From Octopus vulgaris (taxonomy: Eukaryota): a stretch of DNA of 64,000 nt. The stretch is from NCBI GenBank assembly GCA_951406725.2, contig OX597821.1, forward strand, positions 22,072,001 to 22,136,000. The letters run 5' to 3'. This document shows positions 38,622-38,855 of this stretch, piece by piece (position 1 is the stretch's first letter; each line of letters starts with the position of its first letter). A model generated the notes under the pieces. That model searched no databases, was not told the DNA's origin, and was given only the letters and a program-made list of their open reading frames with translations. The translations under genes and the position numbers were made by a program.

Positions 38622-38855
38622 TGATGAAATCCACTCAATCACACGCCAGATTTTACCATAACGATAATTACGCGTGCGGTTCAATTGATTACATCGGACG
38701 TTATAATTCAAATGCCCCAACGTTATAATTCAAATGAGAGCTTGGCGCGCTGTTGGTTGGGGCATTTGAATTATAACGTCCGATGTAATCAATTGAACCG
38801 CACGCGTAATTATCGTTATGGTAAAATCTGGCGTGTGATTGAGTGGATTTCATCA

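Follow-up and report, generated by a model that had tools for sequence, protein, structure and literature searches.

At positions 37182-39632 of the window, as we call the whole 64-kb stretch of DNA analysed here, a 535-nt repeat unit carrying a hammerhead ribozyme has been copied as two back-to-back arms, and we are highly confident that this head-to-head insertion is real. The element fits a non-LTR retrozyme, that is, a non-autonomous Penelope-like element (PLE). The simplest reading of its origin, to which we give an even chance, is that two cDNAs were primed from the two ends of the target and were then end-joined. The kind of element, the head-to-head layout and the circle model are already in print; what is new is one family and one clean junction.

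The origin of tandem and inverted PLE insertions has been stated to be unresolved (PMC8557442, PMC3846280), and the insertion of retrozymes from a circRNA template is still a model (PMC7229834). The present locus is very young, both its arms exceed one unit and its junction is resolved to the base, so that the family to which it belongs could serve to tell dual priming from self-priming and a circular from a multimeric template. Taken alone, the locus decides neither the priming question nor the template question.

Anatomy of the locus and its surroundings

Unit positions are numbered from the first base past the predicted cleavage site. The period is 535 nt (cleavage-site spacings are 535 on the plus strand and 534 and 535 on the minus strand), and the unit has a GC content of 34% with 16 CpG. 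The preliminary description had the arms meeting 5'-to-5' with their 3' ends pointing outward into (TA)n, each arm longer than one unit, and the outer ends at different unit positions, neither of them at the cleavage site; all of this is borne out (Table 1). The outer ends differ by 126-130 nt in the unit and overlap the target by 1 nt at the right and 4 nt at the left, where 37182-37185 can be assigned to target or to element. On the right, the local alignment continued into the TA tract past 39632 with many mismatches, and the arm end was set at 39632. Poly(A) is absent at both outer ends, and a target-site duplication cannot be read in (TA)n.

Table 1. Coordinates of the head-to-head insertion, its predicted ribozymes and related elements of the window
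Feature	Position	Strand	Description
Left target tract, (TA)16	37154..37185	.	last 4 nt match element end too
Left arm	37182..38721	-	1540 nt, 2.88 tandem units, unit position 356 to 288-292, 3' end leftward
Junction insert	38720..38736	.	17-nt templated tract, 2-nt microhomology each side, 13 nt in neither arm
Right arm	38735..39632 (start 38735/38737)	+	898 nt, 1.67 units, unit position 335/337 to 162, 3' end rightward
Right target tract, interrupted (TA)n	39632..39723	.	followed by mariner element
Type I hammerhead copy	37461..37551	-	predicted cleavage after 37473; extent transferred from fold of another copy
Type I hammerhead copy	37995..38086	-	predicted cleavage after 38007; extent transferred from fold of another copy
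Type I hammerhead copy	38530..38621	-	predicted cleavage after 38542; extent transferred from fold of another copy
Type I hammerhead copy	38856..38947	+	predicted cleavage after 38935; motif and fold
Type I hammerhead copy	39391..39482	+	predicted cleavage after 39470
Main long-range RNA helix of one monomer (predicted)	38956..39312	+	unit 21-81 (38956-39016) with 326-377 (39261-39312)
Unrelated type I hammerhead fragment (~360 nt)	50935-51297	-	core 51225, predicted cleavage after 51153; 3' end 217 nt past site
5'-truncated PLE remnant	~58030-59860	-	RT and GIY-YIG frames, Cys-rich linker, ends in (TA)n; 89 relatives found
PLE-remnant terminal-repeat copy	58123	-	75-80% identity; 3' end 94 nt past site
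PLE-remnant terminal-repeat copy	61639	+	75-80% identity; 3' end 99 nt past site
PLE-remnant terminal-repeat copy	18113	-	75-80% identity; 3' end 67 nt past site

The near-perfect palindrome, put at about 900 bp in the preliminary description, comprises 877 nt per arm, mirrored with 875 identities, one mismatch and two one-base gaps around a 34-nt spacer. The units are near-identical, with five singleton differences from the reference monomer in 2438 nt, all of them in the left arm: a CpG-type transition at 38482 and one-base indels at 38307, 38099, 37505 and 37448. None of the three that lie within the mirrored part recurs in the right arm; the two arms have no private variants in common. Full-length BLAST matches of the unit occur only at 37182-39632, and BLAST gave no match to the unit elsewhere in the 64-kb window. 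Tandem Repeats Finder was run with periods of up to 500, so the 535-nt array was beyond its reach. An exact-pattern scan of bacterial and archaeal genomes gave no matches, and a search around the element for one repeat split by the insertion, as a sign of flank continuity, found none.

The 15-nt duplicated tract that had been reported at the junction is present at 38722-38736, and its maximal match is 17 nt (38720-38736). This tract repeats 38698-38714 in direct orientation and 38763-38779 in inverted orientation (26-nt loop); together with the start of the right arm it forms a 17-bp hairpin (-14.9 kcal/mol as DNA). The centre of the element contains neither TA nor any other target DNA. A single event is therefore favoured, and two successive insertions were rejected. 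The inner arm starts lie 21 nt apart in the unit, a closeness expected by chance in about 8% of cases, and both fall in the most GC-rich 30 nt of the unit (67%), on one strand of its strongest helix. The junction insert fits the definition of synthesis-dependent MMEJ (SD-MMEJ), with a primer repeat, a templated insert and a microhomology repeat, a general DNA-repair signature that is not RT-specific (PMC5728401).

The window consists of animal DNA rich in microsatellites and contains decayed pieces of LINE, mariner, Pif1-helicase and PLE sequence. The TA tract that received the right arm also harbours a mariner element (39722-40997, plus strand) with near-perfect terminal repeats and a transposase split over two frames, and just past it begins a LINE remnant (40985-43553, plus strand) with endonuclease and RT frames. 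A second, LINE-like remnant (11009-13800, minus strand) has an endonuclease frame and upstream ORF fragments. A 165-bp tandem repeat (3.1 copies) adjoins a Pif1 helicase fragment (19260-19779 and 19996-20547, plus strand), possibly a Helitron remnant, and a dispersed repeat of 200-230 nt, ~90% identical and found in both orientations, is probably a SINE (47915-48148 / 57279-57512, 54576-54802).

A motif search for ribozymes outside the insertion gave five rows, one of which (31345), short and with the nearest TA tract 2352 nt away, was set aside as a chance motif. The remaining four end in (TA)n, past the cleavage site (Table 1). The hammerhead at 50935-51297 has a long stem II and a palindromic stem III, with (TA)n on both sides. 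The other three are terminal-repeat copies with a minimal hammerhead-like motif, in whose core U seems to replace the conserved A6, and the copy at 58123 forms the 3' end of the RT/GIY-YIG remnant, which we take from a motif to be Neptune-like. The GIY-YIG Pfam match of this remnant is weak (E 0.023). The terminal-repeat copies at 58 kb and 61.6 kb face each other 5'-to-5', with other sequence between them.

Ribozyme, RNA fold and coding capacity

The type I hammerhead core is intact in all five units, three consecutive on the minus strand and two on the plus strand. Its 23-nt pattern has five occurrences in the window and none in 100 shuffles. As folded at 38856-38947, the ribozyme has a stem I of 5+4 bp, a long stem II of 18 bp with interruptions, and a stem III of 2 bp closed by a palindromic 4-nt loop; a helix III of such type is typical of metazoan ribozymes acting as dimers (PMC4209133). 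Rfam gave no matches in the whole window at the gathering threshold, and in E-value mode the right arm gave one chance match and no hammerhead. From motif and fold, the unit is predicted to carry a self-cleaving type I hammerhead. By eye, stem II also contains a GTAAGT-type splice donor, and TATA-like tracts lie upstream of unit position 335.

In the ribozyme sense, the circular monomer has a predicted minimum free energy of -153.9 kcal/mol (z -7.2 against 60 shuffles), with 67% of its bases paired. The antisense strand likewise folds better than shuffles (z -5.9). The sense fold has 22 G-U pairs vs 2 A-C oppositions, and its main duplex is worth -57.8 kcal/mol in sense and -31.3 kcal/mol in antisense; the G-U excess and the stronger sense duplex suggest that the sense RNA is under selection. 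The most GC-rich 30 nt of the unit lie on the 326-377 strand of the main helix, and both inner arm ends map to this strand.

When the monomer is folded as a circle, the probability is ~0.07 for the active stem I and ~0.92 for a blocking hairpin. The sequence just past the cleavage site (38936-38949 on the plus strand, and equivalents) pairs with the stem III strand of the ribozyme, and this pairing is predicted to prevent the active fold both in a circle and in a multimer. It is a possible switch that would keep templates uncut.

Whichever strand is transcribed, an RNA that spans the locus would contain the 877-bp hairpin and two to three sense ribozymes. A cruciform or a hairpin dsRNA had been suggested for the palindrome. 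On general knowledge the cruciform is doubtful with a 34-nt spacer, and the hairpin RNA would need read-through transcription.

The two ORFs of the unit have no Pfam match, and its six-frame translation does not match a profile built from full-length PLE proteins (the 24 longest out of 89). A 48-aa ORF, presumed from its appearance to resemble a GIY-YIG C-terminus, was rejected as such after Pfam, a word search among longer proteins, a search of 1.84 billion representatives and the PLE profile all gave it no support. The unit is thus without the ORF for RT and GIY-YIG endonuclease that marks an autonomous PLE. It does have several marks of a retrozyme, namely at least two consecutive tandem units with a complete hammerhead, no coding capacity found and a monomer predicted to be highly self-paired. 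Its GC content of 34% is under the 50% bound for retrozymes, and its 535 nt lie above the 150-450 bp given in PMC7229834 and inside the 51-972 bp of 10.64898/2026.07.22.740005, whose working definition of a retrozyme covers the unit. The latter source argues, from 35 genomes of vertebrates, insects and one anthozoan, that non-LTR retrozymes derive from PLE pLTRs; the proposed model of PMC7229834 has PLE enzymes copy circRNA into tandem cDNA. Among the titles and abstract beginnings that we searched, with subscription journals mostly outside the scope, we found no paper describing this 535-nt retrozyme family and none describing a bilaterally multimeric inverted retrozyme insertion.

Priming, joining and template

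The locus anatomy, the ribozyme motif, the scar-free cleavage sites and the junction sequence are read directly in the DNA, and the following course of a recent insertion would account for them. The unit would be mobilised in trans by a PLE RT with a GIY-YIG endonuclease. This enzyme, probably as a dimer, would nick both strands of the (TA)n tract, and each target 3' end would prime a cDNA at an internal site in the RNA (unit 162 and ~290), with a separate RNA molecule most likely serving each cDNA. The template would be uncut or exactly religated at the ribozyme, so that each cDNA passes one unit. Both cDNAs would stop within one stretch that is rich in GC and strongly paired (335 and 356), and this stretch may itself be what stops them. 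One end would then add 15 nt of extra DNA on neighbouring template via 2-nt annealing (snap-back or loop-out), and the two ends would be joined by a 2-nt microhomology, presumably by a repair route such as SD-MMEJ.

Parts of this course have precedents. A purified PLE cleaves and extends both strands and prefers AT-rich DNA; it starts internally in RNA without homology, is predicted to be a dimer and prefers unprocessed RNA (PMC11167929). For L1 it is documented that opposite cDNAs copied from two different RNAs can be end-joined (PMC11702581). In the window itself, the PLE-type RT/GIY-YIG fragment and the four other ribozyme-type fragments ending in (TA)n speak for the involvement of a PLE. 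The preliminary description had likewise proposed one retrotransposition event by PLE-type machinery, with cDNAs from both sides of a TA break, and this much stands; its choice of L1-style twin priming and of a rolling circle does not follow from the locus.

Against dual priming it must be said that it rests on one locus and that the partner PLE was not found by Pfam, homologue or profile searches. It also needs a common stop for the symmetric centre, which may be a stall at the GC-rich stretch or helix, or a transcription start. A structural stall is made less likely by the fold of a linear trimer, in which the 326-370 strand finds its partner in the next unit and would already be free of pairing when the RT arrives. 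That the inner ends lie so close together is explained only after the fact, whereas a fold-back predicts it directly.

Such a fold-back, in which one cDNA folds and primes its own second strand and the hairpin is later resolved and integrated, so that the arms are template and copy, was absent from the preliminary description. It has been proposed for PLE head-to-head palindromes (PMC3846280). We consider it unlikely here, for all that the near-symmetric centre is what it would produce and that the 17-bp hairpin of insert and right-arm start lets the insert be read as a snap-back. The difficulty lies in the arm lengths. Self-priming on the right-arm cDNA offers at most 877 nt for the 1540-nt left arm and would need two one-unit slips or a longer, later trimmed intermediate, whereas the lengths are free with two cDNAs, which makes dual priming simpler. 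Self-priming on the left-arm cDNA would need 2-nt annealing a full unit upstream. The lack of mirrored variants points the same way, but weakly, since these variants may have arisen after the insertion or in sequencing.

Twin priming in the L1 sense, with the right arm as first cDNA and the left arm primed internally on the same uncut multimer or circle, fits poorly, and we hold it improbable. Its 5'-to-5' geometry and 2-nt junction microhomology agree with the locus, the target overlap of 4 nt at left and 1 nt at right is as expected for secondary and primary priming, and in the unit the outer end of the left arm (292) comes shortly before the inner end of the right arm (335). But the gap between these is 42 nt at best and 193 nt in the other assignment, where L1 inversions have gaps of 1-10 nt in 32 of 32 cases (PMC11702581) or median gaps of 14.5 and 22 nt (10.1101/2024.08.27.596794). 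A gap of 42 nt may fall within the tail of the L1 range; on a 535-nt unit it arises by chance in about 29% of cases, and a 4-nt overlap occurs at 9.5% of cut positions. The primary cDNA of L1 is on average 2.6 times longer than the secondary (10.1101/2024.08.27.596794), and here the supposed secondary cDNA is the longer one. The arm starts, only 21 nt apart, are left unexplained. On a multimer, one-RNA twin priming needs a template of at least 2480 nt (4.6 units); if the template is a single monomeric circle, the first cDNA would already cover the internal site, so that one-RNA twin priming and a rolling circle combine poorly.

We give similarly little credence to a change at the DNA level, in which a single-orientation array was later inverted (by a break, fold-back or template switch with Pol theta-type joining) or a shorter insertion was expanded by unequal exchange. 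The junction insert is a general DNA-repair signature (PMC5728401), and tandem arrays can change copy number after insertion (10.64898/2026.07.22.740005). However, flank DNA is neither duplicated nor inverted, both outer ends pass cleanly into (TA)n as 3'-type joins, as in the other fragments of the window, the almost identical arms leave little time, and the layout is common in PLEs.

An assembly artefact, a fold-back chimeric read having joined two loci of the family, is very improbable. In its favour, one-base indels of the kind met in long-read consensus make up four of the five variants, structures of this sort assemble badly (PMC8557442) and the split-repeat search gave no flank continuity. 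Against it, the palindrome breaks off at different unit positions without taking in the flanks, a templated insert made in two steps occupies the centre, the sole substitution is a CpG-type transition that is not mirrored, and the layout is a known PLE one.

Turning to the template, all five cleavage sites are crossed unchanged over 40 nt and are scar-free, which implies that it was uncut or exactly religated. Template jumps leave scars, and jumping between cleaved monomers is accordingly disfavoured; concatemers made from a linear template are known from DRT2 (PMC12039810). Of the two remaining templates, a linear multimer is the more probable and a circle the less probable one. Rolling-circle reverse transcription, claimed in the preliminary description, is not singled out, since an uncut linear multimer predicts the same sequence and a purified PLE prefers unprocessed RNA and starts internally (PMC11167929). 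Ends off the cleavage site are no sign of a circle and are generic, as all four other ribozyme-type fragments of the window end 67-217 nt past the site in (TA)n. Seven of eight linear permutations fold at -158.6 to -160.3 kcal/mol and one at -152.7 kcal/mol, vs -153.9 kcal/mol for the circle; as seven of the eight fold no worse, the fold does not demand a circle. No variant pattern at the locus separates circle from multimer. Fixed ends in all copies could be compatible with a circle too, as a circular RNP could have fixed start sites.

A bolder conjecture, which we think rather unlikely, would have a dimeric PLE prime both strands of a (TA)n break, each subunit rolling more than once round a ribozyme-made circular RNA, both stalling at the GC-rich stretch and host SD-MMEJ sealing the ends. 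If true, it would give one model for the tandem and inverted structures of PLEs, and a genomic proof of animal circRNA retrozymes as insertion template.

Comparison with known systems

Head-to-head structures are well described for PLEs. An inverted, 5'-truncated copy often adjoins the 5' end, (TA)n is a preferred target of Naiads, and inverted and tandem structures assemble badly (PMC8557442). Head-to-head repeats with junction palindromes have been explained by self-priming; in the examples given, the 5' ends of pLTRs carry palindromes of 18 and 38 bp, and the overlap between an inverted and a direct pLTR is 15 bp (PMC3846280). Opposite-strand ribozyme pairs 100-700 bp apart were noted in PMC4209133. 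The passages of PMC8490949 yielded nothing on inversion, and by a term count the word 'inverted' is absent from PMC7229834. The present locus has an adjoining inverted 5'-truncated copy, a 17-bp stem with a 21-nt offset at the junction, and both ends in (TA)n at internal sites (+162 and +288-292). The 30-40 nt tail that PLEs optionally carry at one end is absent, the ends differing instead by 126-130 nt.

With L1 twin-primed inversions (PMC11702581; 10.1101/2024.08.27.596794) the locus shares the 5'-to-5' junction and the microhomology at the junction and at one outer end. It differs in having no poly(A), arms that overlap as a palindrome, a 42-nt gap and a longer putative secondary cDNA, and in the enzyme family. 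Like SD-MMEJ junctions (PMC5728401), its own has an insert templated within ~25 nt, by loop-out or snap-back, a 2-nt primer repeat and a 2-nt microhomology; in contrast to them, the ends joined here would be those of cDNAs, and the insert could be the work of the RT itself.

The likeness to EN+ PLEs with inverted copies (PMC3846280, PMC8557442, PMC4209133, PMC11167929) extends to 3'-outward arms, a junction palindrome with a small offset, an AT-rich or (TA)n target, a hammerhead and 3' ends internal to the unit, whereas the locus has no RT or GIY-YIG ORF and both its arms are multimers of a small unit. In this last respect it resembles MRC1 and other non-autonomous PLE derivatives of the Chlamys type, whose insertions are multicopy and head-to-tail (PMC8557442). 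PLEs with an N-terminal EN are without canonical hammerheads (PMC8557442), so multimers can arise without the ribozyme-circle route.

With metazoan non-LTR retrozymes (PMC7229834; 10.64898/2026.07.22.740005) the element shares tandem, low-GC, non-coding units, each with a type I hammerhead, as well as a strongly self-paired predicted circle and co-occurrence with PLEs. It differs from them in the 18-bp stem II, and in the blocked stem I predicted for the circle, which is more like that of plant retrozymes.
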